Below are positions 6,341 through 52,420 of a DNA stretch of 64,000 nucleotides, one piece after another. The DNA comes from Somniosus microcephalus (lineage: Eukaryota). Below the pieces are notes generated by a model, which made no database searches, was not told where the DNA came from, and worked only from the letters and a program-made list of their open reading frames with translations. The stretch lies in NCBI GenBank assembly GCA_052327205.1, contig CM126225.1, positions 11,532,001-11,596,000 on the forward strand, read 5' to 3'. Numbering within the stretch: the first letter of the stretch is position 1; every line of letters starts with the position of its first letter. Both the position numbers and the translations under genes were made by a program.

Positions 6341-6554
6341 TCCAAACATTTTCATTACGTTGCTAGTTTAAGGCGATCACTCTCGGGTGCTTCACTGATC
6401 TGCCTTCCTGTTGCAATGAGCCCAAGCAACAAGGGGGGCTGCCTTAGGTATCAGCACAGAAATTATTCTGTAATTACAAAAGCAGGGAGTCTCGCATTCA
6501 ATGCTCTTTGTTTTTAGTTTCTCTTCTTCTGTGTCAGATGGGCGTAGTTGATAG

Positions 6555-6730: not shown

Positions 6731-6734
6731 AATC

Positions 6735-7302
6735 GTTTTTTATTCGTTTTTATTGGATGTGGGCATCGCTGGCGAGGCCAGCATTTATTGCCCATCCCTA
6801 ATTGCCCTTGAGAAGCTGGTGATGAGCCGCCTTCTTGAACCGCTGCAGTCCGTGTGGTGAAGATACTCCCACAGTGCTGTTCGGGAGGGAGTTCCAGGAT
6901 TTTGACCCAGCGACGATGAAGGATCGGCCGATATACTTCTAAGTCAGGATGGTGTGTGACTTGGAGGGGATCTTGGAGGTGGTGGTGTTCCCATGCGCCT
7001 GCTGCCCTTGTCCTTCTAGGTGGTAGAGTTCACGGGTTTGGGAGGTGTTGCCAAAGAAGCCTTGGCGAGTTGCTGCAGTGCATCTTGTAGATGGTACACA
7101 CTGCAGCCACGGTGCGCCGGTGGTGGAGGGAGTGAATGTTTAAGGTGGTGGATGGGGTGCCAATCAAGCGGGCTGCTTTGTCCTGGATGGTGTTGAGCTT
7201 CTTGAGTGTTGTTGGAGCGGCACTCATCCAGGCAAGTGGAGAGTATTCCATCACACTCCTTACTTGTGCCTTGTAGATGGTGGAAAGGCTTTGGGGAGTC
7301 AG
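6735..7302 (-). mobile_element. CR1-superfamily LINE, second family, 3' fragment
   Basis: LSTIYKAQVRSVMEYSPLAW...IQDKAARLIG (post-RT region of ORF2). Confidence 0.85.
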
Positions 7303-7709
7303 GAGTTGTATCATATAGGAACTGGCATAGGTTATTCAGCCCCTCGAACCTGTTCTGCCACTGCTACAAGGAATATCTTCACCACATGGATGGTATAGTG
7401 GTGCAAGAAGGCAGCCCACCACCACCTTCTGGGGACACCTAAGGGGCGGGCAATGAGTGCCAGCCTTGCCAGCGCCCCGCACATTGCGAGATTGAATACA
7501 AAAACACCTCTCACCTATAAGGTTGTGGCCCCCTGCCACACTGCTTGGCTTTTACAAGACACTGCTCCTCAATGGGAGAACGGTTGGGAAATGGAGCCAG
7601 TGTGCCCAATTTGTGGCATTTCCAATTTTAATGACTGGAAATTTGATCATTGGAAGCATCACAATGCGGGCATGCTAACCTCTGTACCTGGTTATTCGAT
7701 CGACACAAG

Positions 7710-8146
7710 GAAAGAAAAAACTTGCATTTATATAGCACCTTTCACAATCTCAGGATGTTCCAAAGGGCTGTACAGTCAATTAAGTACTTTTGAGGTGTGG
7801 TCACTGTTGTAATGTAGGAAACGCGACGACCAATTTGTGCACAGCAAGCTCCCACAAACGGCAATGCGATATTGACCAGATAATCTGTTTTAGTGATGTT
7901 GGTTGAGGGATAAATATTGGCCAGGACACCAGGAAAACTCCCCTACATTTCTTCAAAATAGTGCGTGGAATTTTGTACATCCAGCTGAAGGGGCCAGACG
8001 GGCTTGGGTTTAACATCTCATCCAAAAGACGACATCTCTGACAATGCAGCACTGGAGTGTCAGCCTAGGTTATGGGAGCAAGCCTCTGGAGTGGGACTTA
8101 AACCAACGACCTTGGCGAGAGTGCCACCACTGAGTCACAGCTGACA
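7710..8146 (-). mobile_element. DeuSINE (SacSINE1-like tRNA SINE with L2-type tail)
   Basis: Reverse complement of the family body (GTCTTTCGGATGAGACGTTAAAC...GCTATATAAATGCAAG) found about 12 times in this window. Confidence 0.8.
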
Positions 8147-8239
8147 TTAAACACTATGGCACTGCCATTAAACAAGGCTTTGTACCAGGAACGGACACTC
8201 TCAAAATCTACCTAATAATTTAAGGTGACACACCAATAC

Positions 8240-8580
8240 AGGACTGAGGCAGTGCCACATTGGCAGAGACACTGTTGTTCAGACATGATGCTAAACTGAG
8301 GTATTCTTCACGTGGACATTAAGGATGCCATGGCACTATTTGAAGAGCAGCAAGGAGGCTGCCTTTCATCCTGGCCAACACTCCTCAACCAATACCATCC
8401 AGATTAACTGATCATTCATCTCATTGGCCTTTGTGGGATCTTCCTGTTTGCAAAATGGCAGCTGCACTTGCCTACCTGACAACGGTCGCTGCTCTTCAAA
8501 GTAATGAATTGTAAGTGAAGCATTTGGAGATGTTTTGCGGAGATGTCATTAAGGGGCTAAATTAACACAAGTCTTTCTTT
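8240..8580 (+). mobile_element. Older, diverged DeuSINE copy
   Basis: GCCATGGCACTATTTGAAGAGCAG...TTGTGGGATCTT...CAAGTCTTTCTTT. Confidence 0.6.
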
Positions 8581-8746
8581 TCCAAAGATACTTCCTTGTG
8601 CTGCAAGCATTTCCAGCGGTACCAGTGCCTATATCACACACTCATACACTGGGTCACTGGGCATCAGTCACAACAGGGAACCCAGGCTAATCTTTCTCCT
8701 CCTCAATCTAGGGTGCTAAGGCCATTACAGTGACCCCACCACAGCC

Positions 8747-24754: not shown

Positions 24755-26032
24755 AGAAACATAGAAGATAGGAGCAGGAGTAGGCCATTCGGCCCCTCGA
24801 GCCTGCTCCACCATTTAATGAGATCATGGCTGATCATCCAAATTCAGTACCCTGTCCCTGCCTTCTCCCCATATCCTTTGATCCCTTTAGCTTTAAGAAA
24901 TATATCTAACTCCTTCTTGAATATATTTAATGAATTGGCCTCAACTGCCTTTTGTGGTAGAGAATTCCACAGGTTCACCACTCCCTGGGTGAAGAAATTC
25001 CTCCTCATCTGTCCTAAATGGCTTACCCCTTATCTTTAGACTGACCCCTGGTTCTGGACTCCCCCGCCATCGGGAATATTATTCCTGCATCTAGTCTGTC
25101 TAGTCCTGTTAGAATTTTATAAGTTTCAATGAGATCCCCTCTCATTCTTCTAAACTCCAGCGAATATAAGCCCAATCGACCCAATCTCTCCTCATACGTC
25201 ATTCCTGCCATCCCAGATATCAGTCTGGTGAATCTTCGCTGCACTCCCTCCATGGCAAGAACATCCTTCCTCAGATAAGGCGAGCAAAACTGCACACAAT
25301 ACTCAAGGTGTGGTCTCACCAAGGCCCTGTACAACTGCAGCAAGACATCCTTGCTCCTGTACTCGAATCCTCTCGCTATGAAGGCCAACATACCATTTGC
25401 CTTCTTAACCGCCTGCTGCACCTGCATGCTTATCTTCAGCGACTGGTGCACAAGGACACCCAGGTCTCGTTGCACTTCCCCTTCTCCCAATCTATTGCCG
25501 TTCAGATAATAATCTGCCTTCCTGTTTTTGCCACCGAAGTGGATAACCTTGAATTTATCCACATTATACTGCATCTGCCATGCATCTGCCCAATCACTCA
25601 ACCTGTCCAAATCATACTGGAGTTTCTCGGCATCCTCCTCACAGCACACATGCCCACCCAGCTTTGTATCATCTGCAAACTTGGAGTTATTACATCTAGT
25701 TCCCTCGTCTAGATCATTAATATATATTGTGAAAAGCTGGGGTCCTAGCACCGATCCCTGCGGTACCCCACTAGTCACTGCCTGCCACTCGGAAAAAGAC
25801 CCGTTTATTCCAACTCTGTGCTTTCTGTCTGCCAACCAGTTCTCTATCCAAGTCAATACCTTGCCTCCAATCCCATGTGCTTTAACTTTACACGCTAATC
25901 TCTTATGCGGGACCTTATCGAAAGCCTTCTGAAAGTCCAAATACACCACATCCACTGGTTCTCCCTTATCTATTCTACCAGTTACATCCTCAAAAAATTC
26001 CAGTAGATTAGTCAAGCATGATTTACCTTTTG
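24755..26032 (-). mobile_element. CR1 (HER1-like) LINE, 5'-truncated, RT domain
   Basis: 330-aa ORF with YLDFQKAFDKVPH, SGVPQGSVLGP and KFADDTKL. Confidence 0.95.
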
Positions 26033-26277
26033 TTCATGACATACCAACTGAGGCACAGGCAGAGAGAGAGATCAAAGGTCTCAAAGGCCTTGCCCAACGT
26101 CAGGGATGTAACTATGAATAAGGCTTTGCCTAATGCTGTGGTTATAAACTGAGAGCACACGAAAAATTTCAAAGCAAGAGATCGAAATGTTTCCACTAGT
26201 GAATAAAGGTGAGGGGTTTAATATTGTAAATGATACCATTTTGCCTGAAGTGAGGTATCACAGTCGGTTGAGTCATA

Positions 26278-27469: not shown

Positions 27470-28232
27470 ATCAGCCATGGCCCAGTGGGTAGCACTCTTG
27501 CCTCTCACATCAGAAGGTTGTGGGTTCATAGTCCCACTCCTGACACTTGAACGCAAAAAATCTAGGCTGCTGCTCGGATGAGACGTTAAACCGAGGCCCC
27601 GTCTGCTCTCTCAAGTGGACATAAAAGACCCCGTGGCCACTGCTTCAAAGAAGAGGAGGCATAGTGGTTAGCACTGTTGCCTCACAGCGCCAGGGACCCG
27701 GGTTCGAATCCGGCCTCGGGTGACTGTCTGTGTGGAGTTTGCACATTCTCCCCGTGTTTGCGTGGGTTTCCTCCGGGTGCTCCGGTTTCCTCCCACAGTC
27801 CAAAGATGTGCGGGTTAGGTTGATTGGCTATGATAAATTGACCCTTAGTGTTGGGGGGATTAAATACGTGGGGATAGGGTGGGATATGTGTTGGTGTAGG
27901 GGTTACGGGGATCGGGTGGGATATGTGTCGGTGCAGGCTCGATGGGCCGAAATGGCCTCTATCTGCACTGTGGGGTTTCTGTGATTCTGTGAAGAGCAGG
28001 GGAGTTATCCCTGGTGTCCTGGCCAATATTTATTCCTCAATCCACTAAAAAAAACGATTATCTGGTTATTATCACATTGCTGTTCGTGAAAGCTTGCTGT
28101 GCGCAAATTGGCTGCCGCAATTCCTACATCACAATATTGACTACACTTCAAAAAGAAGTTCATTGGCTGTAAAGCGCTTTGGGACGTCCGGTGGTTGTGA
28201 AAGGCGTTATATAAATGAAAGTCTTTTCTTTC
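27470..28232 (+). mobile_element. DeuSINE interrupted by an HE1 SINE
   Basis: Head at 27475-27650; body resumes at 27991; GAAGAG is duplicated around the insert. Confidence 0.85.
27656..27990 (+). mobile_element. HE1-type V-SINE (tRNA-derived, CR1/HER1 tail)
   Basis: Head GTGGTTAGCAC...GGTTCGAATCC; V-domain TGTGTGGAGTTTGCACATTCTCCCCGTG...CCTCCCACAGTCCAAAGA; CR1-like tail. Confidence 0.88.
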
Positions 28233-29150: not shown

Positions 29151-29658
29151 AATTTGTCTTTGCTAAAACAACCTAAAGTCAAATTGGGAAGACAACCATC
29201 CCATGTATTATGTGGTTTGTATTGGCTACAGATAGATTGGTTGCTAGGAGTATTGTCAGAGAATCATAAGCAATGGAGAGGGTGTAACATCTAACCCATT
29301 TCTGCAACCTAAAACGAAGCTCCAGTACATCCTATGACATTGACCATCTTGAGCAAGTGTGGCTGCATCATCTATAACACATTGGGAGGGGTTGTGGCCC
29401 AAGAGCTGGCAAAAAAGAACAAGCAAGGAGGAAGTCTAGAGAAATTGACGAGAGCACTGTAGGATGCAAGAACAACTAGGAAGAGAGAACCTAGGAACAC
29501 ACCACGCCACAGTGTGAAGCTGATCAAGTAGTGTTTACCCTTGCTCCCTAGCACAGGTAGGCTGGTGTCACCTGCACTAAGGATCATGTGTAGGGTTGCT
29601 GTAATGAAATCTGTTTGTCTTGATTCTGTATTCGTTTTGCACTCATGTATATTACCCT

Positions 29659-30059
29659 GTTCCTGGGACTAGGGACAGGGTCATGGGCAAGGCTTGGAAG
29701 CTAAGCAAGAGCCAGGTCTGGTTAGTACCTGGAAGGAGTGACCATTAGAGAAGACCAGGTGCAGAAAGTCACAGAATGGAGCCCTGAGGAGGGGCGGTTG
29801 GTACGGAAGGGGGCGGCTGGTGAGCAGGCCCGGGCGTTGGGCTGAAGATTGTCAGACAGGAGGAATGGTGGAAATGGAATGGCGGCGCGCACAGATGCAG
29901 CGGCTTTTGCTTCTCCCAGGACGGTGCTATTTACGTTTAATGTTAATGTTATTTGTACTGGACTCATGGGAGCTTGCAAGATCACATTTCGTTGTTCATG
30001 TACTTGTGCATTGTACAATGACAATAAAGTTGAATTATATTATTATTATTATATTATAT
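29659..30059 (+). mobile_element. 5S rRNA-derived SINE (SINE3-type) with Rex/Babar-like tail, inserted in the 5' LTR
   Basis: Absent from the 3' LTR; 11-bp TSD TATATTACCCT. 29693-29770 aligns to the 3' part of 5S rRNA (GGAAGCTAAGCA...CTGGTTAGTAC.TGGA...ACC.GGTGC). Ends GTACAATGACAATAAAGTTGAA(TTA)n. Confidence 0.8.
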
Positions 30060-30324
30060 TATATTACCCTCCCCCACGGTGTATAGTTTCACTTCCTCTT
30101 TCCCGACTAACCTGGAAGGTTCCAGGTCTTGGCTCTTGGCTCCGCCCCTGACTTCTCTTACATAAAGATCCCAGGATCTGTATGACTCATTCCTGTGAAC
30201 CAGTCGGCGTGTTGAGATGTTAGCTCTGATCTTAGTGATTAAAAGCCAACTTGTTTAAGTCTATAACTTCTAGTTTTGTGGTTATTGAAGGCCCATCAAT
30301 TTTTAATCACTAAAGAATACTAGG

Positions 30325-30906
30325 ATGGATCGACTCCTAAAACCAGAGCGTCTGGACTTGGATCCACATTCTGCTGAAGCATCAAATCAATTTGGACACT
30401 GGCTCAAATGTTTCGAACTCTTCGCGGGGGCCTCATCCACTAGCGAGGTAGATAAACTGAGTCTACTGACTACTCGCGTAAGTCATCGGATTTATTCGTT
30501 CATCCGGGACGCCACCTCTTACACGGAGGCCATCACTATCCTGAAGGCCCAATACCAGAGGCCGGTAAACGAAGTGTACGCCAGACATCTGCTGGCTACA
30601 CGCAGGCAGCGACCACAGGAATCAATGGACGATTTCTTACAGGGCCTAAAGGACCTGGTCCGGGACTGTAACTGCAAGGCAGTGATGGCCAACGCGTACT
30701 CTGACGAATTGGTCCGCGATTCCTTCATCACGGGCCTCAAATCGAATTATATCCGGCAGAGACTGCTGGAGAAGGAGGTCCTGGATTTAAAAAAGACAGT
30801 GGCCACTGCGCGATCGCTGGACGTGGCCCAGAGAAACTCTGACTCTTATTCTTCCGGCCATGCGGCCCTCACCGTCTCGTGCGCGCCGAGGGGGCCGCCA
30901 TCTTAG
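30325..30906 (+). CDS. Gypsy gag, N-terminal/capsid part (truncated)
   Basis: ATG 25 nt after the LTR; ARHLLATRRQRPQESMDDFLQGLKDLVRDC...VRDSFITGL is the Gypsy gag major-homology-like region. Confidence 0.85.
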   Translation: MDRLLKPERLDLDPHSAEASNQFGHWLKCFELFAGASSTSEVDKLSLLTTRVSHRIYSFIRDATSYTEAITILKAQYQRPVNEVYARHLLATRRQRPQESMDDFLQGLKDLVRDCNCKAVMANAYSDELVRDSFITGLKSNYIRQRLLEKEVLDLKKTVATARSLDVAQRNSDSYSSGHAALTVSCAPRGPPS

Positions 30907-30964
30907 AATCAGCCATCTTCCCCATCCAGGTCTCAGACCAGCTCTACGCCGCCGGAGTCCCCAC

Positions 30965-32047
30965 ACAGAAGTTCACCCAGGGGTCACCCGACTATACCAT
31001 TTTATAAAGTCCCGCAATCTGCCCCACTCCATCGAGGAGGTCAGGGCAATGACCAGAGCCTGCCGCATCTGTGCGGAATGCAAGCCTCGTTTCTACAGGC
31101 CTGACCGTGCACACCTTATCAAAGCCACACGGCCATTCGAGCGCCTAAGTCTGGACTTCAAGGGACCCCTTCCCTCTGCTGACCGTAACGTATACTTCCT
31201 CAATATCATTGATGAATATTCCCGCTTCCCCTTCGCCATTCCCTGCCCAGACATGACCAGTGCCACGGTCATCAAGTGTCTCTGTAATCTATTCTGCATG
31301 TTTGGCATGCCAAACTACATACACAGCGATAGGGGGACGTCATTCATGAGTGACGAGCTGCACCAGTTCTTGCCCTCGAAGGGGATAGCCACTAGCAGAA
31401 CCACTAGCTACAACCCCCGGGGTAATGGGCAAGTGGAAAGGGAGAATGCTACTGTTTGGAAGGCTGTCACGTTAGCCTTAAAGTCAAAAGGCCTTCCGAC
31501 CTCCCACTGGCAGGAAGTCCTCCCAGACGTGCTCCACTCCATAAGGTCTCTGTTATGTACTGCCACTAACGTTACCCCTCACGAAAAGATGTTCGTTTTC
31601 CCCCGGAAATCCACCTCGGGCATATCTCTACCCGCGTGGCTGATGTCTCCGGGGACAGTACTATTGCGGAAGCACGTGAGAGGCCATAAAACGGACCCCC
31701 TTGTGGAAAAGGTACAGCTCCTCCATGCAAACCCTCAGTACGCCTATATCGAATACTCTGACGCGCGAGAGGACACTGTTTCCATAAAAGACCTCGCTCC
31801 CTCGGGGAGCGGAGAGAACGATGGGAGACTACCCGATGAAGACCTACACTACAAAGAGACAGGATTCCCAGAGGTATCAATACCCAACTTTAACCTGGAG
31901 GACACTGCAGATAACCTGGAAGACACTGCGGAGGCCCGGACAGCGGAGGAACCAGAATCCACTCCCCTAGAGGCACCCCAACCGGCTTTGCGCCGATCCC
32001 TGAGAACTGCAAAACCTCCTGACAGACTCACTTATACCAACTTTTAA
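30965..32047 (+). CDS. Gypsy integrase (pol 3' remnant)
   Basis: HPG...CRIC zinc-finger remnant; catalytic LSLDFKGP, IHSDRG and NGQVERENA (DDE); uninterrupted to the stop just before the PPT. Confidence 0.9.
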   Translation, partial: TEVHPGVTRLYHFIKSRNLPHSIEEVRAMTRACRICAECKPRFYRPDRAHLIKATRPFERLSLDFKGPLPSADRNVYFLNIIDEYSRFPFAIPCPDMTSATVIKCLCNLFCMFGMPNYIHSDRGTSFMSDELHQFLPSKGIATSRTTSYNPRGNGQVERENATVWKAVTLALKSKGLPTSHWQEVLPDVLHSIRSLLCTATNVTPHEKMFVFPRKSTSGISLPAWLMSPGTVLLRKHVRGHKTDPLVEKVQLLHANPQYAYIEYSDAREDTVSIKDLAPSGSGENDGRLPDEDLHYKETGFPEVSIPNFNLEDTADNLEDTAEARTAEEPESTPLEAPQPALRRSLRTAKPPDRLTYTNF

Positions 32048-32827
32048 GAAACATCACCCCGATGGACTAAATCTATAGAAGGGGTGAATGTAATGAAATC
32101 TGTTTGTCTTGATTCTGTATTCATATTGCACTCATGTATACTACCCTCCCCCACGGTGTATAGTTTCACTTCCTCTTTCCCGACTAACCTGGAAGGTTCC
32201 AGGTCTTGGCTCTTGGCTCCGCCCCTGACTTCTCTTACATAAGGATCCCAGGATCTGTATGACTCATTCCTGTGAACCAGTCGGCATGTTGAGATGTTAG
32301 CTCTGATCTTAGTGATTAAAAGCCAACGGCCTAGAAATTCAGTTGCGTTCGCCAGCCGTTAGCGCCTTAGGAGGGGTAGATCTCGAGCGCTAGGCACTTA
32401 GCGCCTGGGCGCAGGACGATCTGCGCCTACGCCCAACTTCAGTAGACATTTAGCGCCGGCGCAAAGTGTTTGCGCGCGCTCAGCTGCGCGCGCAACTTAT
32501 GACGTCATTTCGTCGTGCAACGCCCTTTGTGCGCCCCAAACCGGAACTTCAGTCGCGCCCGCCCAATGTGGGCGTGGCGGTGTTAAGAACTGTGAAGTGG
32601 AACGCAGCAGAGGCCCTGCGGGCCTCGGGGAGCGCTAATTAAAGGGCACTTACACTGAACTATAAAGGCCAGCCATTTTGCTGCAATGACTTTTCTGCAA
32701 CGGATTTCTGGACAGAGACCAAGGAAGAGACCTTACTGATTTGGCCCAACATAGGAGAGGTATTTTTGGCTTCTGGCCAGAGCTTGGAAATTTGCCTCAT
32801 TGTGATTTCATTGTTTGCAAGTATATT

Positions 32828-33973
32828 ATGGGGGCTGCATGGGGTTCCAACCCTCAGTTCCAGCATTATGTGCAAAGGGCTCGCAGACGCTGTGTGAGAG
32901 GGGCAGCCATGCCTAGACACAGAGGGGGCATCAGGCATCAGCAACGTAGGCCTTACCCACTCAGGGAATACCGCCAGCAGGTGTCCTATCTCACCATGAC
33001 TGCCGCGCAGTGTGTTAAGAGGCTGCGCTTCAGAAGGGAGGTGGTTGCAGAGATCTGCCAGCTGCTTCACAGAGATCTGCGTCCACAGCTGATGTGCAGG
33101 ACGTCTCTGTCGGTGGAAGTGAAGGTCACGGTGGCTCTGAACTTTTATGCAAGCGGCTCCTTCCAAGCCGCTGCTGGGGACATAGCTAACATCTCCCAGT
33201 TCGCCGTGCATCGCTGCATCCGGCAGGTCACCGATGCCCTTTTCACAAGGAGACACCAATTCATCTCCTTCCCCATGACCCTAGAGAGGCAGGAGCAGCG
33301 TGCAGTCGGATTTGCGAGGGTCGCCGACTTCCCCATGGTGCAGGGCGCCATTGACTGCACGCATGTGGCTTTGCGGGCACCTATCGACAATGCCGAGAAT
33401 TACCGCAACCGGAAGTGCTACCATTCCCTCAATGTACAGCTGGTGTGTGACCACAGGCAGCGCATCCTAGCTGTCAATGCCCGCTTTCCAGGCAGCAGCC
33501 ACGATGCTTTTATCCTGCGCCAGACTACTGTGGCTGACATGTTCCAGGCACAGCCTCCCCCAAGAGGATGGCTTATCGGGGACAAAGGCTATCCTTTGTG
33601 TACATGGCTCATGACCCCGCTCCGCGTGCCCAGGACCCCTGCTGAGGAGGCATACAACGAAAGCCATCAAGCCACAAGGAACATCATAGAGCAAACGATT
33701 GGCGTCCTCAAGCAACGGTTCCGCTGCCTGGATCGCTCCGGCGGATCTCTGCAGTATTCGCCGGATAGAGTCTCCCAGTTCGTCGTCGTTTGCTGCATGC
33801 TGCACAACCTGGCTATCCGCAGGACTCAGGCACTGCCACCTCACGTTGGACCACCACCTCAGGAGGATGAGCAGGAGGACCATGAGGAGGAGGAGGAGGA
33901 GGAGTACCAGCCCAGGAGGGAGCCACAAGGTCCAAGGGCCGTCCGTCGGCGGCTTATTGAACGACACTTCTAG
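32828..33973 (+). CDS. Harbinger DDE transposase (HARBI1-like nuclease family), 381 aa from the first ATG
   Basis: HTH region (VALNFYASGSFQ...ISQFAVHRCIRQV); GAIDCTH, YRNRKCYHSLNVQLVCD, PGSSHDAFIL, GDKGYP and IEQTIGVLKQRFRCL; AATAAA at 34087. Confidence 0.93.
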   Translation: MGAAWGSNPQFQHYVQRARRRCVRGAAMPRHRGGIRHQQRRPYPLREYRQQVSYLTMTAAQCVKRLRFRREVVAEICQLLHRDLRPQLMCRTSLSVEVKVTVALNFYASGSFQAAAGDIANISQFAVHRCIRQVTDALFTRRHQFISFPMTLERQEQRAVGFARVADFPMVQGAIDCTHVALRAPIDNAENYRNRKCYHSLNVQLVCDHRQRILAVNARFPGSSHDAFILRQTTVADMFQAQPPPRGWLIGDKGYPLCTWLMTPLRVPRTPAEEAYNESHQATRNIIEQTIGVLKQRFRCLDRSGGSLQYSPDRVSQFVVVCCMLHNLAIRRTQALPPHVGPPPQEDEQEDHEEEEEEEYQPRREPQGPRAVRRRLIERHF

Positions 33974-34312
33974 GCCCCCTGTCAGGGAATGGCTTGTGGC
34001 AATGAAGGCACATGAATGCAACCGCTCCGCAAGCCCTCAGCCGGTTAACGCAACAACCACTCGAAACATCACACATGGACAAGCTGAATAAAGAAAAAGC
34101 TTTATTGAACAAACTCAGGGCCCTTCCCACATGAAACCCAAAAACAGACAACACCCCCAAAAAACAGTCAAAAACATATCTCACTCCCACAACCTGGGGA
34201 GGAATAACAAAACTTATCTATCCAAATGGCCTTCATCCTCGGCCTTACCAAAAGAACCCCCCCCATAGACAACACAACCACCCCCATATAAAAAAACATT
34301 TGCCAACACACT

Positions 34313-35649
34313 CTACTTTGTGTGCCGAGAGGGCGAGTCCTTGTCCAGGCTTTTCCGGCCCCTGGCCAACCTGCTGCTCCGCCTCAACCTGGGCCCTGTG
34401 GGTGCTGCAAGGCTGGGGGAAGGCTCCTGAGGGGCACATTGCGTGACGGCAGATGCCCTTGGGGGTCGGCCTAGACGAGCTCTGGCCCTCGAGGGGCCGG
34501 CTGCCGACTGCTGCAGCTGTGGCTGGGCAGCATCAGTCCCTCCAGCAGCTCGTCGCAGCTTCGCTGGGGGAGTGGCAGTGGCGGCTGCAGCAATGGGGGC
34601 AAGCTGGCTGATGCCAGGCGCTCGCTGCTCGCCTGAGACACTGGCACTCGGCCGGGCTGGCACTGCAGCAAGCGCAGCAATCTGGTGAAGGCCAGACCGC
34701 TGTGCTGCTGCAGCGCGGCGGGTGCCCTGGCGATGCCTGCCTGACACAGCGAGTGTGGCAGCAGTGAGTGCCCGTACTGCCCTGGTCTGTGCCCGCATCA
34801 GACCAGCCAGTGACTGCACGGCACCACTGATCAACTGTCCACTCGCTGCCTGTGCTGCCCTGAATTCGTCCCGACTCGCGTCCTGTGCTGCCCTGAATTC
34901 GGCCCGACTCGCGTCCTGTGCTGCCCTCAATTCGGCCCGACTCGCGTCCTGTGATGCCCCGAATTCGGCCCGACTCGCGTCCTGTGATGCCCCGAATTGT
35001 TCGAGACCCCTGGCCTGTGCTGCCGCGAGTTGTTCGAAACCCCTGGCCTGTGAGGCCCCGAAATCGGACACACTATGAGCCAGGGACTCAATGGCCTCAG
35101 GCAACTGTGCCACAACCCCCATGAACTCGGTGTGCCGACGATCCGAGTCCGCGGACATTTGATCAAGGAGGCGCACCTCCTGGGCGAGGACCGTCTCCGG
35201 ACTGGAGGCCGGACTCTCCCTCTGGGGAGAAGGCCGCCGAGCTGCCCGACCCTTCCCGCGTGGCTGCACGCCACTGGGCCCAGCAACTACACTCCCCTGC
35301 AACACTTCCCCCCTCTGGGGAGAAGGCAGCCGAGCTGCCCGACCCTTCCCGTGTGGCTGGACGCCACTGGGCACAGGAGCTACACTCCCCTGCAACACTT
35401 CCCCCCTCTGGGGAGAAGGCAGCCGTGCTGCCCGACCCTTCCCGCGTGGCTGGACGCCACTGGGCACAGGAGCTACACCCCCCTGCAACACTTCCCCCTG
35501 GCTCTCCTCCAGGGAAGACGTGTCCCCTCCATTGCCATCCCCTGGCGCGGATGAGGGTTCCCCCGATGGGCCGCCTTCCTCTTCCTCCTCCTCGTCCTCC
35601 TCTTCCGAGGGATTGACACTCACAGCTTCAGGGACCTCCTCCTCACCAG
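34313..35649 (-). CDS. Harbinger Myb/SANT partner protein, exon 3 (acidic, repeat-rich, basic tail)
   Basis: Acceptor CCTTCCTGCTTTCAG; a phase-1 join to exon 2 is in frame with the 436-aa ORF; minus-strand AATAAA at 34101-34106. Confidence 0.8.
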
Positions 35650-35808
35650 CTGAAAGCAGGAAGGCACAAGAGTAGCTTTAGAGTGAGGACAGGGCATCAG
35701 CGAGGGAGGCATGAGTGGTGGCATTCTGCGCATTGGTCGGACAGTGGCAAAGGATGTAGATCTGAAGCGCAAGGGGAACGAGAGAGGTCCAAAAGGTCAT
35801 GTCCTTAC

Positions 35809-35971
35809 CATTGGGGCCCAGCACAGGGTCGGCATCTCCAATTGCAACGGGGCCAATCACCCGGGCACCCATGAGTCGACCCACGCGCTCCTCCAGGTCA
35901 CTGAGCTGCTGGAACTGGGGACGGCCTCCCCCGGTGACAGTCCGGCTCTTCAGATTCTGGGCCAGCTTGGC
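35809..35971 (-). CDS. Harbinger Myb/SANT partner protein, exon 2
   Basis: CCTTTCTCTTGCAG|AKLAQNLKSRTVTGGG...LSDLEERV...|GTAAG; 163 nt. The TGGG motif is typical downstream of Myb/SANT-like domains. Confidence 0.85.
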
Positions 35972-36256
35972 CTGCAAGAGAAAGGACGGCCTCTAAGTAC
36001 AGTGTGGTGCCCTGTTGTTGTGTGCACTGCCTCCCATGGTCGAATAGCTTGGCCAGTGTGGTGCCCTGTTGTTGTGTGCACTGCCTCCCATGGTCGAATA
36101 GCTTGGCCACTGTGTAAAGTGCAGAAAGTGCAATTGATGTTCATGCCAGTGCCATAGCTGCTGGATGAGGGCTGGCCATTAGGCCTTTGAGGTCCCTTTG
36201 CCCATAATGTGAGGTGCACATGCAAGGATGAGGAGGACACTGGAAAGGGTACTCAC

Positions 36257-36493
36257 CCTGACAATCCGAGTGAGGTCGTTAAACTTTTTCCGGCATTGGA
36301 CAACAGTCCGGGGGACATCGCAGGTGGCTGTGACCCTCTGGGCGATATCCCTCCAGGCTCTCCTGTACACCCTGTTGGGAGGCTTCTTGCCACTGTCCGG
36401 GAACAAGATATGGCTTCTCTTCTCCAAAGCCCTAACCAGCACCTTTAAATCATGGCCAGAGAAGCGCTGCGCTCGCTCACGGGCCCTCTGCAT
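36257..36493 (-). CDS. Harbinger Myb/SANT partner protein, exon 1 (DNA-binding domain)
   Basis: RFSGHDLKVLV...AWRDIAQRV...RTVVQCRKKFNDL is a Myb/SANT-like trihelix; 79 codons then a GTGAGT donor. Confidence 0.9.
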
Positions 36494-38612
36494 CCTTCCT
36501 GGCGCTATTTCTCTCCAGCAGCAGTGTTTAGGCCTAGCTGGAGGGCTGCAGTATCCAGGGCGTGGCAGCAGACCAAGTCGACCCTTCCCCCTTTAAGAGC
36601 TGGCCGGCGCCAGGGTGTCTGCTGTCAATCAAAACATGACCGCACCTGCGCTGCGCCCGGCCTCGGCGGTATCAGTCTGCACCGCCGGCTTAGCGCCTAA
36701 GGATAGCCGTGCATCGCCAGTTTTAGCGCTCGAGCAAACTCCTTGGCCAAAGCTACTGAATTTCGGCGAACTGCCCTCCACTTTCCGGCGGGCGCAAACT
36801 TTAGCGGCCGCCCGACTTTACCGCCCCAAAAGTGGCTATACTGAATTTCTAGGCCAACTTGTTTAAGTCTATAACTTCTAGTTTTGTGGTTATTGAAGGC
36901 CCATCAATTGCCAAGTGCCCAACCCTGTCCAGGATTGCCCTGGGGTCTCCAGGAATTAAAAACTAATCTCCAGGACCCTGCTGCCAGCAAAACCCAGGAG
37001 AGAAAACATTGGGACGTTAAAAAAAATTGTGTTTATAAAAAAAATTAATTACTCGAACACTTTTGTTTACAAGTCATAAAAATACTGGACGTGGGAAACA
37101 ATGCTGGTTGGCTGACAGTCAAGAATCATCCAATCGCGTAATGATGAGTCTGCTTGCTTTCCGATTGGCTGTGGGAAGGCAGGGCACCATGAGAATGGAC
37201 ATGTTGGGCGACCAATGGCAGGAGTGTAAGGGGGGGCGGGGCAGTTGGAGATCATGTGATGAAACCTCCAAGAATATGTCCAACCATAGTTGCCGACCAT
37301 AATCACGTGTACTCACGGCTACCATTTTGAATGGCGTACCACTTCGGGACTGAAATCAGCAAAACTGATTTCCGCTGTTCGTGTTGAAGGTACTGTTTGC
37401 ATGAAGCTGGGAAAACATTTGAGGAGAAATCATCTCTGCACAAAGACGATTTGCATGAATCGGATAGTAAGTTTGAGATTGAGGGAAGCTAACTGGGGCG
37501 TAGGAAAAGCCGACATAAAACTTACCAGCAAGGTAGCTTGGCGAGGGGCAGATAGATGAATGGATAAACTGGTGGATATATAGATTGATTGGTAGAAAGC
37601 AATGTGCAGTCAGTATCGTTAATGTGGCTTTGATTTAAGAAGTGAGAAAGATGATATAATGCCCAAGGTAGGACTTCTTCTGTCAGTATTAGTAACAAAT
37701 GGAAAAGGCTGAATTTAAAAAAATCTTCAATCTATCGGCAATTTCCCCTTCATGCATAAAACAGTGTAACCCTCCTGCTCTGACAGAGTTTCAACAGCAG
37801 GCTGATTGAGCATTACTGGTTGACAGTTTGATAAAAGAGATAAAGCTGCAATTGGCAGCTCGCTTCCAGTAAGCAGGCAATTGAGTTTGAAAAGGATGGA
37901 TTCTCAACATTTACTCAGAAAATCTCACAGATCTAAAGGCAGTTAGAACATAAGAACATAAGAAATAGGAGCAGGAATGGGCCACTTGGCCCCTCGAGCC
38001 TGCTCCGCCAGTCAATAAGATCATGGCTGATCTTGGGCTCAAAGCCACTTCCCCGCCCGCTCCCCATAACCCTTCACTCCCTCATCTTGCAAAAATCTGT
38101 CTCTCTCCACCTTAAATGTATTTAATGACCCAGCCTCCACGGCTCTCTGGGGCAGAGAATTCCACAGATTTATGACCCTCTGAGAGAAGAAATTCCTCCT
38201 CATCTCAGTTCTAAACGGGCGACCCTTTATTCTGAAACTGTGCCCCCGAGTTCTAGATTTCCCCACGAGGGGAAACATCCTCTCTGCATCTACCTTGTCG
38301 AGCCCCCTCAGGATCTTATATGTTTCAATAAGATCACCTCTCATTCTTCTAAATTCCAATGAGTATTGGCCCAACCTGCTCAACCTTTCTTCATAAGTCA
38401 ACCCCCTCATCTCAGGAATCAACCAAGTGAATCGTCTCTGAACTGCCTCCAATGCAAGTATACCCTTCCTTAAATAAGGAGACCAAAACTGTACGCAGTA
38501 CTCAAGGTGTGGTCTCACCAATACCCTGTACAGTTGTAGCAAGTCTTCCCTGCTTTTATACGCCAACCCCCTTGCAATAAAGGCCAACATTCCATTTGCC
38601 TTTTTGATTACT

Positions 38613-39280
38613 CAATTCAATTTAATTTGCCATATGTAACCAGTACAAGTACAAGTAGAATGGAATGCTTACTCCCCGTGGGGACACGTCAGCTATTTTT
38701 ACAGCGCCGTGCTCAGAAAATCAATTCTTTGGCATCCCGTGGCAGTGGGAGCACGATGTCCCTCAGCCGCTCCGTCCTCCTCGTCACCGCAGCCTCCTCC
38801 TCACTGTTGCCGGCTCGGCTCCACGTGTGGTGGCCTGCTTCTCCCGCTCACCCTCAGGCCACCATTCCCGGCTCCCCTCCTCCCAGTCGGACTGCGAGTC
38901 ATTGTGGCTGCTGCTGCTGCTCGATGCGCTGCGCTGCCTCCGCCCGACTCGCCGAACACATCCTCCGGTCGCTGCGGCCTCCACCTCACCGTCGCCGGCT
39001 CCATGGTCCGATGGCCCGGGCCTGTTCTCCCGCTTCCGGTCCGGCCTCTGGCCGCCATGCTCGGCTCCCCTCCTCCCAGTTGGAATGCCTTCCCGCTGAG
39101 GAGCAGCTGGCCGACGTGCCCTAGCGGGCCGACGTGGCTGCTGCTGCGTCCCGATGCGCTGCGCTGCCTCCGCCCGACTCGCCGAACACCTCGCTCTGGT
39201 TGCGGGAACGAGCGGCGAGAGCGGGCCGCCCGAAGCAGGGAGAGCGCGCTAGCGCTGGACCGTCTCGGGCGCCATCTTGA
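38613..39280 (-). mobile_element. GC-rich non-autonomous retroelement (Rex/Babar-like ends)
   Basis: Clean insertion in a CR1 with ACT duplicated; minus strand starts TCAAGATGGCGCCC and ends GGCAAATTAAATTGAATTG. Confidence 0.65.
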
Positions 39281-39599
39281 ACTTGCTGTACCTGCATGCT
39301 AACTTTTTGTGTTTCATGCACAAGGACCCCCAGGTCCCTCTGAACTGTAGCATTTTGTAATCTCTCTCCATTTAAATAATAATTTGCTTTTCTATTTTTC
39401 CTGCCAAAGTGGATAACCTCGCACTTTTCCACATTGTACTCCATCTGCCAAATGTTTGCCCAATCACTTAGCCTGTCTATATCCCTTTGCAGATTCTTTG
39501 AGTCTTCTGCACAACTTGCTTTCCCACCCATCTTTGTATCATCCACAAACTTGGCTACATTACACTCGGTCCCTTCATCCAAGTCATTACTGTAGATTG

Positions 39600-40065
39600 G
39601 GATGGCAGGAATGATGTATGAGGAGAGATTGAGTCGATTGGGCTTATACTCGCTGGAGTTTAGAAGAATGAGAGGGGATCTCATTGAAATTTATAAAATT
39701 CAAACAGGACTCGACAGACCAGATGCAGGAAGGATGTTCCCGATGGCAGGGGAGTCCAGCACCAGGGGTCACAGTCTAAAGATAAGGGGTAAGCCATTTA
39801 GGACTGAGATGGGGAGGAATTTCTTCACCCAGAGAGTGGTGAACCTGTGGAATTCTCTACCACAGAAGGCAGTTGAGGCCAATTCATTAAATATATTCAA
39901 GAAGGAGTTAGATATATTTCTTAAGGCTAAAGGGATCAAGGGATATGGGGAGAAAGCAGGGACAGGGTACTGAATTTGGATGATCAGCCATGATCTCATT
40001 AAATGGCAGAGCAGGCTCGAGGGGCCGAATGGCCTACTCCTGCTCCTATCTTCTATGTTTCTATG
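39600..40065 (+). mobile_element. CR1 (HER1-like) 3' fragment nested antisense in another CR1
   Basis: Near-identical to 300-770. Confidence 0.9.
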
Positions 40066-40239
40066 TAAATAGTTGAGGCCCCAGCACCGATCCCTGTGGC
40101 ACCCCACTAGTTACCGTGTACCGGAAAATGGCCCATGTTTGGTGACTCATACCTCTTCAGGTTGGAAGCTTGATGTGAAGTTGCCTGTATACTTCACACA
40201 AAAAAAGCAGACAAGCCGTTTAAACTGACTGTTTCCTGT

Positions 40240-40416: not shown

Positions 40417-41162
40417 GGGGGAGAAATTCAGTTGGTTGCGCCACCCGTTAGCGCCTTAAGAGGGCGCTAAGTGGGTCGCAAGCCAACTCGCGCCCGGGTG
40501 CGGCACTGCCCACGCCTCCTGCTAAATTCCGCGGGACGTTAGTGGTGGCACTAACCGTTAGCGCTGCGTCGCTGCCGATGACGTCATCGGTGTGCGGAGC
40601 GCCCCGCTGATATCCCGGCCGCGATATTCGGGAGCGCCCCCCGATTTACCGCCGGACGCTATGTCCGACAGGGTCAGGGTGGTGTACCTGCGGCCGGGGA
40701 GGCGCAAATTAAAGGCGAGGTGCGGAGTGGCCATTTTTGTTGTTGGCCGCCTGCCAGCACCTGCCTGCGCTCCCGTCCCCGGCCTCCTGAACGCCCCCCC
40801 CCCGTGGAGTGCTGGCTGCGCTCTGCACTCCAAGAGCCCAGCACGAATTCTCCTCGGTGCTGGGCTCTTTTGCCTGCACTCCCGATCGCGCTGCATAAGG
40901 CCCCTCCCCTTTAAGGAGGGGAGGAAGGCCAGCAATACCGCAGCGCGACGTGCCGCGGCGTGTGGCGCTGCGGCACGTTGCGCCACGATATTCACTCGCA
41001 GCGCCCCAAGAGGGATGCGGGGCGCCTCCAGTAGTGCCCCGCTTCCCTTTGGGGCGCAACCGCTCAATTTCCGGTGCGGGGGCGCAAATGTTTCCGGGGC
41101 GCTACTTTTAGCGCCCTGGCGAGGCTGGCGCCCCAAACGGGGCTATACTCAATTTCCCCCCC
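40417..41162. mobile_element. Harbinger-type MITE, 746 bp
   Basis: TIRs GGGGGAGAAATTCAGT / ACTCAATTTCCCCCCC; TTT on both sides; right end GGCTATACT.AATTTC is shared with the autonomous element. Confidence 0.88.
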
Positions 41163-41574: not shown

Positions 41575-42310
41575 TTGGCTCAGTGGCTAGCACTCTCGCC
41601 TCTGCGTCAGCAGGTTGTGAGTTCAAGCCCCACTCCAGAGACTTGAACACAGAAATCTAGGCTGAGACTTCAGTGCAGTACTGAGGGAGTGCTGTACTGT
41701 CGGAGGTGCAGTACTGAGGGAATGCTGCACTGTCGGAGGGGCAGTACTGAGGGAGTGCTGCACTGTCGGAGGGGCAGTACTGAGGGAGTGCTGCACTGTC
41801 GGAGGGGCAGTACTGAGGGAGTGCTGCACTGTCGGAGGGGCAGTACTGAGGGAGTGCTGCACTGTCGGAGGGGCAGTACTGAGGGAGTGCTGCACTGTCG
41901 GAGGGGCAGTACTGAGGGAGTGCTGCACTGTCGGAGTGGCAGTAATGTGGGAGTGCTGCACTGTCCGAGGGGCAGTACTGAGGGAGTGCTGCACTGTCGG
42001 AGGGGCAGTACTGAGGGAGTGCTGCATTGTCGGAGGGGCAGTAATGAGGGAGTGCTGCACTGTTGGAGGGGCAGTACTGAGGGAGTGCTGCACTGTCGGA
42101 GGGACAGTACTGAGGGAGCGCTGCATTGTCGGAGGTGCGGTACTGAGGGAGCACTGCATTGTCGGAGGTGCCGGCTTTCAGATCAGATGCCAAACTAAGG
42201 CCCTCCCTTCCTGCCTTCGCAGGTGGGCATAAAAGATCCCATGGTGCTCTGTGCAGAAGAGCAGAGGAGTTTACCTGGTGTGCTGGGCAATATTCATTCC
42301 TTAACCAACA
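41575..42310 (+). mobile_element. DeuSINE with an internal tandem expansion
   Basis: tRNA-like head at 41575-41670; body resumes at 42170. Confidence 0.85.
41675..42170. repeat. 33-bp minisatellite, about 15 units (GCAGTACTGAGGGAGTGCTGCACTGTCGGAGGG)
   Basis: Period 33 seen directly; the unit is single-copy in other DeuSINEs (e.g. 43510-43540). Confidence 0.95.
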
Positions 42311-46704: not shown

Positions 46705-48180
46705 CTAACGAAAGAGAGATAGAGAGTATGATGAAGCAGAAAAAGAGTGCGTATGACAGATGTCAGGTTGCAAATACATCTGAGAATCAGGCTATATATA
46801 GAAAGGTCAGAGGAGAAGTGAAAAAGAAAATAAGAGGGGCAAAGAGAGGGTATGAGACTTATATGGCGGCCAACATAAAAGGTAATCCAAAAGTCTTCTA
46901 TAGGCATATAAATAGTAAAAGGGTAGTAAGAGGAGTGGTGGGGCCGATTAGGGACCAAAAAGGAGACCTACGCATGGAGGCAGAGGGTGTGGCTGAGGTA
47001 CTAAATGAGTACTTTGCATCTGTCTTCACCAAGGAAGAGGATGCTGCCATAGACATAGTGAAGGAGGAGGTAGTGGAGACACTTGTTAGGATAAAAATTG
47101 ATAAAGCAGAGTTATTAGAAAGGCTGGCTGTACTTAAAGTAGATACAGGAAACTTTCGATTAACCGGCCCCTAAATAACCGGAACGCTCTATCCACCGGC
47201 AAAATTCAGGAGTCGGTTCAGATAACTTTTTTTACTTTTAGTTACTTTTTTTACTCCATTTGTTGCTGTGCAAGGGTGTAGCTGAAGCTATTGCTAAGCT
47301 ACAGAGACGCTTGCAACTTGTATCAATTGTTTACAGGGTTTGTTGCTTTAAACGGAGCTCTGAGCTCCGTATCTTTTACTATAGCGTTCGGTTATCCGGA
47401 ATTGTTGATGAACCGGCAACACGTCAGTCCCGTCCATGCCGGATACCAGAAAGTTTCCTGTAAATCACCAGGAGCAGATGGGATGCATCCTAGGATGCTG
47501 AGGGAATTGAGGGCAGAAATCGCGGAGGTACTGGCCATAATATTCCAATCCTCCATAGACATGGGAGTGGTGCCAGAGGACTGGAAAATTGCAAATGTTC
47601 AAAAAAAGGGTGTAAAGATAAACCCAGCAACTACAGGCCAGTCAGTTTAACCTCGGTAATGGGGAGGCTTTTAGAAACAGTAATCAGGAACAAAATTAAC
47701 AGTCACTTGGATACATGTGGATTAATTAAGGAAAACCAGCCTGGATTTGTTAAAGGCAGATCGTGTTTAAACAACTTGATCGAGTTTTTTGATGAGGTAA
47801 CAGAGAGGGCTGATGAGGGTAATGCAGTTGATGTGGTGTACATGGATTTCTAAAAGGCGTTCGACAAAGTGCCACGTAATAGGCTCGCCAACAAAGTTGA
47901 AGCCCATGGAATAAAAGGGACAGTGGCAGCATGGATACGAAATTGGCTAAGTGACAGGAAACAGAGAGTCGTGGTGAACGGTTGTTTTTCGGACTGGAGG
48001 AAGGTATACAGTGATGTTCCCCAGGGGTCTGTTCTAGGACCACTGCTTTTCTTGATATATATTAATATTAATGACTTGGACATGGGTGTACAGGGCAAAA
48101 TTTCAAAATTTGCAGATGACACAAAACTTGGAAGTATAGTGAACAGTGAGGAGGAGAGCGATTGACTTCAGGAAGACCTA
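46705..48180 (+). mobile_element. CR1 LINE internal ORF2 fragment (disrupted)
   Basis: NPKVFYRHINSK, KSPGADGMHPRML, VVYMDF*KAFDKVP, PQGSVLGP and FADDTKL. Confidence 0.92.
47146..47460. mobile_element. Tc1/mariner (Tigger/pogo-like) MITE
   Basis: TIR CAGGAAACTTTC / GAAAGTTTCCTG; TA TSD; splits CR1 codons ...KVD|KSPG. Confidence 0.88.
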
Positions 48181-49777: not shown

Positions 49778-52420
49778 TACATAGAATCATAGAATGGTTA
49801 CAGCACAGAAGGAGACCATTCGGCCCATCGAGCCCGTGCCAGCTCTCTGCAAGAGCACTTCAGCTAGTCCCACTCCCCCGCCCTTTCCCCGCAGCCCTGC
49901 ACATTTATTTCCTTCAGGTACTTATCCAACTCCCTTTTGAAAGCCATGATTGAGTCTGCCTCCGCCACCCTTTCAGGCAGAACATTCCAGATCTTACCCA
50001 CTCGCTGCGTAAAAATATTTCCTCATGTCACCTTTGGTTCCTCTGCCAATCACCTTAAATCTGTGTCCTCTGGTTCTCGACCCTTCCGTCAATGGAAACA
50101 GTTTCTCTCTATTTGCTCCGTCTGAGCCCCTCATGATTTTGAACACCTCTGTCAAATCTCCTCTCAACCTTCTCTGCTGTAACGAGAACAACCTTAGCTT
50201 CTCCAGTCTATCCACGTAACTGAAGACCCTTTTCCCTGGAAACATTCTTTAAATCTTTTCTGCACCCTCTCTAAGGCCTTCATAGCCTTCCTAAAAGTGC
50301 GGTGCCCAGAATTGGACACAATACTCCAGTTGAAACCGAAACAGTGTTTTATAAAGATTCATCATAATTTCCTTGCTTTTGTACTCTATGCCTCTATTTA
50401 TGAAGCCCAGGATCCCGAATGCTTTTTTAACCGCTTTCTCAACCTGCCCTGCCACCTTCAACGTATACCCCCAGGTCTCTCTGTTTGTGCACCCACTTTA
50501 GAGTTGTACCCTTTAGTTTCTATTGCCTCTCCTCATTCTTCCTACCAAAATGCATCATTTCACACTTTTTTGCGTTAAATTTCATCTGTCACGTGTCCAC
50601 CCATTCCACCAGCCTGTCTATGTCTTCCTGAAGTCTATCACTATCCTCCTCACTGTTCACTATACTTCCAAGTTTTGTGTCATCTGCAAATTTTGAAATT
50701 GTGCCCTGTACACCCACGTCCAAGTCATTAATATACATCAAGAAAAGCAGTGGTCCTAGAACCGACCCCTGGGGAACACCACTGTATACCTTCCTCCAGT
50801 CCGATAAACAACCGTTCACCACTACTCTCTGTTTCCTGTCACTTAGCCAATTTCGCATCCATGCTGCCACTGTCCCTTTTATTCCATGGGCTTCAACTTT
50901 TCTGGCAAGCCTATTATGTGGCACTTTATCAAACACCTTTTGGAAGTCCATGTACACCACATCAACTGCATTACATAAGAACACAAGAACATAAGAAGTA
51001 GGAGCAGGAGTAGGCCATACGGCCCCTCGGGCCTGCTCCGCCATTCAATAGGATCATGGCTGATCCGAATCTAGACTCACGTCCACTTCCCTGCCCTCTC
51101 CCCGTAACCCCTAATTCCCTTATCTGCTAGGAAACTGTCTATCTCCATTTTAAATTTATTTAATGTTGCAGCTTCCGCAGCTCTCTGGGGTAGCAAATTC
51201 CATAGATTTACTACCCTCTGAGTGAAGAAGTTTCTCCTCATCTCAGTTTTGAAAGGGCAGCCCCTTATTCTTAGATTATGCCCCCTAGTTCTAGTCTCAC
51301 CCATCAGTGGAAACATCCTCACCGCATCCACCCAATCAAGCCCCCTCACAATCTTATATGTTTCGATAAGATCGCCTCTCATTCTTCTGAACTCCAATGA
51401 GTAGAGTCCCAACCTACTCAACCTTTCCTCATACGTTACCTTCATCAATCCTCTCTGTTACCTCATCAATAAACTCAATCAAGTTAGTTAAACACGATTT
51501 GCCTTTAACAAATCCGTGCTGGTTTTCCTTAATTAATTCACACTTGTCAAAGTGATTGTTAATTTTGTCCTGGATTATCGTTTCTAAAAACCTCCCCACT
51601 GCCGAGGTTAAATTGACTTGCCTGTAGTTGCTGGGTTTATCCTTACACCCTTTTTTGAATAAGGGTGTAACATTTGTGATTCTTCAGTCCTCTGGCACCC
51701 CCATATCTAAGGAGGATTGGAAGATTGTGGCCAGTACCTCTGCAATTTCCACCTTTACTTCCCTCAGCATCCATGGATGCATCCCATCTGGTCCTGGTGA
51801 CTTAACTACTTTAAGTACAGCCAGCCTTTCTAGTACCTTCTCTTTATCAATTTTTATCCCATCAAGTGTCTCAACTACCTTCTCTTTTACTATGTCTATG
51901 GCAGCATCTTCTTCCTTGGTAAAGACAGATGTAAAGTACTCAGTTAGTACCTCAGCCTTGCCTTCTGCCTCCATAGGTAGGTCTCCTTTTCGGTCCCTAA
52001 TCGGCCCCACCCCTCCTGTTACTGCCTGTTTACTATTTATATACCTGTAGAAAACTTTTGGATTCCCTTTTATGTTAGCTGCCAATTTATTCTCAGACTC
52101 TCTCTTTGCCCCTCTTATTTCCTTTTTCACTTCCCCTCTGAACTTTCTATATGCAGCCTGGTTCTCACTTGTATTCTCAAACTGACATCTGTTATACACC
52201 CCCTTTTTCTGCTTCATCTTACTCTCTATCTCTTTCATCATCCAGGGAGCTCTGACTTTGGTGGCCCTACCTTTCCCCCTTGTGGGAATATACCTCAACT
52301 GTACCCGAACCATCTTCTCCTTAAAGGCAGTTTTGCCTGCCAATCTTTGATTCCAATTTACCCGGGCCAGATCCATTCTCAACCCACTGAAATTGGCCTT
52401 CCTCCAATTAAGAATTGATT
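49778..52420 (-). mobile_element. CR1 LINE, 5'-truncated, with another CR1 3' fragment nested at about 50975-51447
   Basis: ORFs 51684..52424, 50589..51044 and 49994..50245 are consecutive ORF2 parts. Confidence 0.9.

Follow-up and report, generated by a model that had tools for sequence, protein, structure and literature searches.

The window analysed here, 64,000 nt of the forward strand of Somniosus microcephalus contig CM126225.1 (contig positions 11,532,001 to 11,596,000), contains an internally deleted gypsy-type LTR element whose 5' LTR is split by an insert at window positions 29659-30059 (Table 1). The insert is 401 bp long, is enclosed by two copies of the 11-mer TATATTACCCT, and is probably a SINE with a 5S-derived promoter and both ends of a LINE in its body. 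Outside the two insertions that they carry, the 5' and 3' LTRs are unequal in 5 of 288 columns (1.7%); since an LTR pair is identical when its element integrates, and the insert is absent from the 3' LTR, the insert is younger than the integration of the LTR element. A first-pass annotation of this DNA had described the insert as confined to the 5' LTR and flanked by an 11-bp target site duplication. The insert and the repeat are both there, but the duplication proper could be 7 bp long, with microhomology making up the rest: two contigs with unrelated DNA upstream (X2 records 18 and 19) start at 29655, so the element may share its first bases with the final 4 nt of the left repeat.

The host element has about 1.8 kb between its LTRs, with one frame that we presume from its position to be gag-like and an integrase-containing frame in which no RT domain was found. 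Read depth indicates that its LTR belongs to a very high-copy family, and the element is possibly a non-autonomous deletion lineage. Its two LTRs have each been struck by a different mobile element, the one inside the 3' LTR being a Harbinger transposon (32328-36855) with 15-bp inverted ends, a 3-bp AAC duplication, a DDE_Tnp_4 transposase (32690-33973, plus strand), a Myb/SANT exon (36179-36592, minus strand) and tandem repeats of 33, 93 and 54 nt; the top 63 of the 120 transposase homologues listed are all labelled as sharks or rays, in line with an elasmobranch host. Elsewhere in the window we see a 33-nt tandem array of about 15-20 units (41576-42268), with related single units at 43501 and 21745, and a tRNA-Gly called by ARAGORN (40538-40612). 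There are also RT-bearing LINE remnants in both orientations (24755-26033, 37948-40066, 47629-48159 and 50565-50966), which we take to be CR1/L2-like and which are 26-30% identical to the Rex-type protein discussed below. A SINE3 within one LTR has been proposed as the first step toward Cassandra and Ajax (PMC10886601). In the present element the insert lies close to the beginning of the 5' LTR, and ordinary reverse transcription would probably fail to pass it on from such a place.

Table 1. Features of the insert and of its host LTR element, in window coordinates.
Feature	Position	Strand	Remark
5' LTR of internally deleted gypsy-type LTR element, split by the insert	29600..30298	+	borders from many loose ends at 29600 and 30298
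Direct repeat, left copy, 11 bp (target duplication)	29648..29658	+	last 4 nt possibly the element's first bases
Non-5S head	29655..29692	+	29655-29680 folds as an 11-bp hairpin
5S rRNA-derived segment, internal control region	29693..29768	+	Rfam model positions ~45-118
G-rich linker	29769..29878	+	degenerate ~40-nt unit (29763-29802), unit number varying among copies
5' end of single-ORF Rex1/Babar-type LINE, from its ATG	29879..29957	+	reads MAARTDAAAFASP
Short stretch between LINE-derived parts	29958..29984	+	deletion variant removes about 29920-29963
3' end of Rex1/Babar-type LINE, conserved stem-loop motif	29985..30035	+	90% over 52 nt to L071
Microsatellite tail, TTA and TTATA units	30035..30059	+	
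Direct repeat, right copy, 11 bp	30060..30070	+	
Gag-like frame of host LTR element (presumed)	30307..30906	+	no Pfam match
Integrase-containing frame of host LTR element	30791..32047	+	PF00665, E 5e-18
3' LTR, without the SINE, split by Harbinger transposon	32089..36906	+	transposon at 32328-36855

A dispersed family with many copies

Although the window holds no further copy of the insert, the sequence is abundant in sequencing reads. Between 29% and 45% of its sampled words are present in 10 of the 24 runs listed, from three organisms; four runs were mapped to 29351-30340, and runs sharing 0.05-0.10 of the words were left out. No indexed RNA run is listed among those that contain these words. 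In X1 the unique flank has a depth of 13.3 (over 277 nt without a difference) against 9,719-688,191 in the bins of the insert, in X2 the corresponding values are 7.5 and 3,113-338,794, and in X10 they are 0 and 308-8,683. The insert-to-flank ratio in X1, about 700 to 50,000, is one of summed contig depth and not a copy number, but its size makes a high copy number very likely; the excess over the unique flank is on the order of 10^3-10^4 in organisms A and B, and depth is high in organism C as well. Of 4,729 contig pieces, 24 are shown; the starts of five of these lie at 29655, 29655, 29661, 29663 and 29670, each preceded by unrelated letters (64-1,118 of them). Such flanks indicate that there are copies at other, non-LTR sites and that the window copy is approximately full length. 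Diverged contigs cross the borders between modules in three organisms, and loose ends at 29658, found in 52 reads of X23 and 3 contigs of X10, reveal LTRs empty of the insert.

The suggestion that the insert is one copy of a mobile family is thus borne out by high depth and unrelated flanks. At 401 bp, and dispersed among unrelated flanks, the element agrees with the SINEBase definition of a SINE in so far as this calls for a short (<1 kb) interspersed repeat (PMC3531059), and the additional body and LINE-type tail common to its copies separate it from a 5S pseudogene. The window copy differs from the family majority by 10 substitutions (4 of them at CpG) and several indels, and it probably derives from a non-majority source element. 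A variant lacking about 29920-29963 is found in 75 RNA reads and in X1 and X10 contigs too. The description of the insertion as recent therefore holds in the sense that it is younger than LTRs that are 1.7% apart, but sits less easily with a copy that has departed from the majority at so many places.

Head, 5S-derived segment and linker

The hairpin in the head has a z-score of -2.49, and equal stability was reached in 3 of 200 shuffles. We agree with the first-pass annotation that this part is not 5S-like, as the 48 nt preceding box A are only 19/49 identical to the 5' half of a 5S-like sequence. The segment that follows is 5S-derived: it contains what we take to be box A (from 29698), an intermediate element and a degenerate box C. 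For reference, a pattern scan yielded four eukaryote-type 5S-like loci, three of them above the Rfam gathering threshold (L087, L088 and L089) and one below it (L090). All four are eukaryote-type 5S or 5S-derived sequence within bacterial genome records, apparently as host contamination, and L087 contains two diverged 5S copies. Positions 29693-29768 are identical to L088 at 59/76, to L089 at 58/76, to L087 at 54/76 and to L090 at 58/76 positions. The 76-78% identity to L088 and L089 over 76 nt sustains the earlier claim of a 5S origin and exceeds the SINE3 threshold of SINEBase, which asks for 60% or more identity with 5S rRNA along 60 nt or more (PMC3531059). Across the window the two-block 5S motif has a single occurrence, and 100 shuffles yielded none. 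The structure-aware Rfam score of the insert against 5S is weak (14.4 bits, E 7.2 across 4,227 families, gathering threshold 38; 12.7 bits on a narrower stretch), because the 5' half and the fold of 5S are absent from it, and no Rfam family matches at gathering level anywhere in the window.

The position of the boxes nonetheless says something about where a transcript might begin. Transcription of 5S genes starts about 50 nt upstream of box A, and box A of the insert, at 29698, corresponds to position 50 of the Rfam model, so that a 5S-type start is expected at about 29649. The contig 5' ends (29655-29670) lie 6-21 nt from this point. From the 5' end at 29655 to box A there are 43 nt, compared with 49 in 5S, and the 5S part is preceded by a non-5S hairpin of about 38 nt. 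Four majority differences fall inside the 5S segment, and in three of them the family majority carries the 5S letter, which places the family nearer to 5S than the window copy is. The strong divergence of the 5S part had been read as the mark of an old family with a remodelled head; the head is indeed foreign to 5S, but part of the divergence is private to the window copy.

The unit that some copies repeat in the linker is seen from a joint linking 29802 to the earlier position 29763; loose ends also occur at 29802 and at 29810, and depth dips over 29780-29812. The self-alignment of this roughly 40-nt unit is weak in the window copy.

Both ends of a LINE

The part that follows the linker resembles the start of a LINE. 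When the middle of the insert was aligned to DNA upstream of LINE tails, the three best of 62 loci were three full-length LINEs, with start-motif scores of 41, 40 and 32 against maxima of 29, 33 and 30 in 300 shuffles each; in all three, 3,150-3,222 nt separate the start motif from the tail that follows it, and wherever the ORF is intact the motif coincides with its ATG. The first codons at 29879 encode MAARTDAAA. An MAA start occurs within the first 60 residues of 40 of the 120 listed homologues of the LINE protein, several of them almost identical. When the 73,271 window peptides were scored with a profile built from 35 LINE N-termini, the one at 29879 came out on top with 36.9 bits (next 11.6; members of the profile 15.8-41.1). 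Many of the homologues continue from MAAR..AA into a hydrophobic, Phe/Cys-rich stretch that resembles a signal or membrane anchor, and the DNA there is T-rich. Taken with the LINE 3' end described below, the LINE start at 29879 means that 29879-30035 is a LINE without its middle 3 kb, and the short stretch between the two parts is probably LINE 3' UTR. The "unique G-rich body" of the first-pass annotation is therefore right about a G-rich linker and wrong about uniqueness, since 29879 to about 29957 is the start of the same kind of LINE as the tail. We also considered the insert as a coding gene and rejected this, as the frame from 29879 is dissimilar beyond about 20 codons and enters the tail.

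Searched with two blocks of the tail, metagenome contigs yielded 83 loci, of which L033, L052 and L068 were dropped as non-fish chance matches, leaving 80 fish-type loci. A scan of viral contigs for the tail motif gave 3 matches, in phage genes, that we regard as chance. The last 52 nt of the insert's LINE part are 86.5% identical to L055, where an ORF ends upstream, and to others, and a LINE ORF ends 141-643 nt upstream of the tail on the same strand at 17 of the 80 loci (at least 400 nt of upstream sequence being present in 47). The tail is thus one common to single-ORF Rex1-type LINEs, as had been proposed; its description as (TTA)n is accurate for the TTA units, but these are mixed with TTATA. 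At 64 of the 80 loci a tandem repeat of 4-7 nt directly follows the tail motif (5-7 nt at 44, 4 nt at 20, none at 16), and Rex1/Babar elements are defined by a 3' UTR followed by tandem repeats of 5-7 nt (PMC4635592). The tail hairpin is stable in L036 (z -5.15) and L055 (z -2.10) and no better than shuffles in the window copy (z -0.14), and among 50 distinct tails one of four variable stem positions covaries above shuffles.

The full-length LINEs, which like all LINEs compared are teleost-type, encode APE, RT and PF09004 in a single ORF of some 1,000 aa. The open frames of L036 and L026 are 1,016 and 996 aa long, with RVT_1 in both and Exo_endo_phos in L036 only, and L026, L036 and L070 carry the start motif and the tail motif at their two ends. 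The peptides corresponding to the published Rex1 primers, whose product is about 550 bp (PMC4635592), are encoded 573-576 nt apart in 3/3 LINE ORFs, and the other RT in the window lacks them; at the DNA level the primers themselves do not map, with 6-8 mismatches over 21 bases for one and 8-11 over 24 for the other. Homologues of the LINE protein bear generic names without a clade label, Rfam returned nothing meaningful on seven LINE or bipartite loci, and the window contains no Rex-type ORF. Like Zenon, Rex1 is without an ORF1, and its abundance is greatest in rays, salmon and barracudina (PMC13343379), so a single-ORF architecture is common to Zenon as well. Judging from architecture and primer peptides together, we consider the donor LINEs very probably Rex1/Babar.

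Bipartite relatives of this body occur in teleosts. Four loci (L058, L069, L044 and L014) have only 48-90 nt between start motif and tail; L058 and L069 have no visible head, and L044 and L014 have other sequence on their 5' side. The head of L044 matches a window repeat at 27662-27774 and, we presume, resembles a tRNA/V-domain head; Rfam found nothing meaningful on it and did not confirm the tRNA label. These loci may be families of their own. In all of them, and in the insert, the same stretch of about 27 nt at the LINE's start codon is kept beside the 3' stem-loop, which might reflect a cis-acting retrotransposition signal in the first codons of Rex1.

A probable bipartite SINE3 and its alternatives

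We think it likely that the insert represents an elasmobranch SINE3, composed of a hairpin head, a 5S internal promoter, a linker of tandem units and a bipartite Rex1/Babar body, that would be transcribed by Pol III and mobilised by a Rex1-type protein. By analogy with Kojima's model, a single-ORF Rex1-type LINE may have lost its middle, so that the first ~80 nt came to abut the last ~75 nt, and a template switch as modelled in PMC5786205 would next have placed the 5S-derived head in front. TFIIIA and TFIIIC would act on the 5S boxes, Pol III would begin some 50 nt ahead of box A, close to the first bases of the element, and the ORF protein of a Rex1-type LINE would in trans bind the 3' stem-loop and carry out target-primed reverse transcription. 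By comparison with known stringent LINE-SINE pairs, priming might take place where an AT-rich target resembles the tail unit; the first bases of the target duplication are similar to the TTATA unit of the tail, in keeping with priming by such microhomology. Transcription by Pol III is suggested by 5' ends within 6-21 nt of the predicted start and by the retention of only the promoter half of 5S. Counting against this reading are the lost 5S fold, the degenerate box C, donor LINEs that are all of teleost type, and a tail hairpin that in the window copy is no more stable than shuffles. The RNA reads (cDNA RNA-seq run X23, organism B, 1,123 reads) are found on either strand and reveal no start in the head, which speaks neither for nor against Pol III. 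Four consecutive T residues at 29905-29908 of the window copy (a T4 run) might terminate Pol III transcription; this run is shorter in nearly all X10 depth and in most X23 reads, and in only 4-5% of X1 and X2 depth. The LINE-derived part is not significantly poor in T4 runs (P 0.37).

It is also conceivable that the mobile unit is an internally deleted LINE (SIDE) transcribed by Pol II, in which the captured 5S boxes are passengers and RNA arises by read-through or from a LINE 5' promoter. A promoter at 29879 would, however, be unable to copy the 220 nt upstream of it, and the head and 5S bins equal the LINE-derived bins in depth. Headless bipartite elements do occur in fish (L058 and L069), and one contig begins at 29851 following 453 unrelated letters, as might be expected of such a unit; the degenerate box C and RNA reads on both strands only point the same way. 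Given that the 5' ends cluster near the start predicted from box A and that 5S is retained as its promoter half only, we regard this alternative as unlikely. Still less probable, and largely refuted, is an LTR with a built-in 5S promoter that was amplified together with the LTR. Cassandra and Ajax are recognised by a 5S piece inside their LTRs (PMC10886601), and LTR and insert have similar depths. In Cassandra and Ajax (TRIMp3), however, 5S is in both LTRs, whereas the insert is in the 5' LTR alone, with its own duplication and a LINE tail, and we find both empty LTRs (loose ends at 29658) and insert contigs with non-LTR flanks. A one-off chimera formed at this site, by a template switch between 5S RNA and a LINE transcript, could account for the odd head and for the many places in which the window copy differs from the majority, but it is refuted by modules that are all multicopy and by diverged contigs that cross their borders in three organisms, and we give it next to no weight.

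Turning back to the bipartite SINE3, it is fair to ask whether the family is already catalogued in Repbase, Dfam or SINEBase, as a shark SINE3 or as an unclassified repeat, possibly with its Rex1 parts noted. Repeat libraries exist for several shark genomes, and an element of very high copy number might well be in them. There is precedent for 5S joined to RSg-1 in OS-SINE1 (PMC3747384), but the literature searched contains neither a shark SINE3 nor a bipartite Rex1 element, the named shark SINEs (HE1, SacSINE1 and CmiSINEs) are tRNA-headed, and vertebrate SINE3s are said to use the CR1 clade (Kojima 2020, PMC7245038). Prior cataloguing is a serious possibility in our estimation, albeit one we lean against. 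In the literature searched, mostly without subscription papers and Repbase Reports, we did not find a 5S promoter joined to the start and end of a Rex1-type LINE, and no shark SINE3 is named in the available parts of PMC5499810, PMC7245038, PMC4824008, PMC6887750, PMC10886601 and PMC6274825.

The body of the insert answers to Kojima's (2018) description of a bipartite SINE, its middle coming from the 5' region of a LINE and its 3' end from the same kind of LINE. In the portions available of that survey, RTE and Vingi are the sole LINEs with a 5' region reported from SINE bodies, bipartite LINEs devoid of an ORF are limited to the RTE, Ingi, Vingi and R2 clades, and the word "Rex" is absent (PMC5786205); a bipartite case from Zenon was added later, in a text whose accessible part likewise has no occurrence of "Rex" (PMC6740152). 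The nearest relatives in build are CoeSINE5 (coelacanth), Ped-1 (springhare), SINE-1_Pmo (python) and HaSE3 (moth), which also join a 5S head to 5' and 3' pieces of a LINE (PMC5786205, PMC3747384). In these the LINE is RTE and the 5' piece lies in its 5' UTR, whereas in the insert the LINE is Rex1/Babar-type and the 5' piece runs from the ATG of the ORF. Persaeus, a SIDE from Zenon (PMC6740152), and RIME, Bov-A and the R2 SIDEs (PMC5786205) resemble the insert as internally deleted LINEs with both ends, but they are without a Pol III head and belong to other LINE clades. The shark SINEs HE1, SacSINE1 and CmiSINEs share the host group and have tRNA heads with CR1 or L2 tails (PMC5499810, PMC3747384).

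A Rex1 tail by itself is not new. We take the LINE RSg-1 to be of the Rex1/Babar clade, and SINE3-1 (zebrafish) and AmnSINE1 have a full 5S-like 5' end. OS-SINE1 of salmonids shares the 5S head of the insert and ends in an RSg-1 tail (PMC3747384, PMC5135761), and SINE2-5_NV pairs with Rex1-24_NV (PMC3747384). The first-pass annotation was accordingly correct about the Rex1-type tail and overstated the novelty of such a partner. OS-SINE1 is described as a Deu-SINE, with no LINE 5' piece reported in the parts of those papers available, and on that description it would differ from the insert; SINE3-1 and AmnSINE1 share a 5S promoter head with the insert but carry a Deu domain and a CR1-4_DR-type tail (PMC3747384). 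The Deu domain is about 330 bp long (PMC4824008), and the unassigned sequence of the insert, about 110 nt, is too short for a whole one. The more novel point is the Rex1 5' piece in the body, rather than the tail.

More widely, we speculate that Rex1/Babar is an unrecognised, recurrent source of bipartite elements (headless ones, a teleost SINE and a shark SINE3), that its first codons also act in cis as an RNA signal for retrotransposition, and that LINEs without ORF1 in general give rise to bipartite derivatives. This is tentative, and we put it slightly short of an even call. Kojima left open whether the short list of bipartite clades reflects sampling bias or mechanism (PMC5786205). A high-copy Rex1-type case in sharks, and independently at teleost loci, adds a clade to that list and makes the question testable, since Rex1 and Zenon share the absence of ORF1 and the retained piece is short enough to be deleted in a retrotransposition assay. 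The family would be the first 5S-headed SINE of cartilaginous fishes in the literature searched, and it would provide insertion markers for shark phylogeny.
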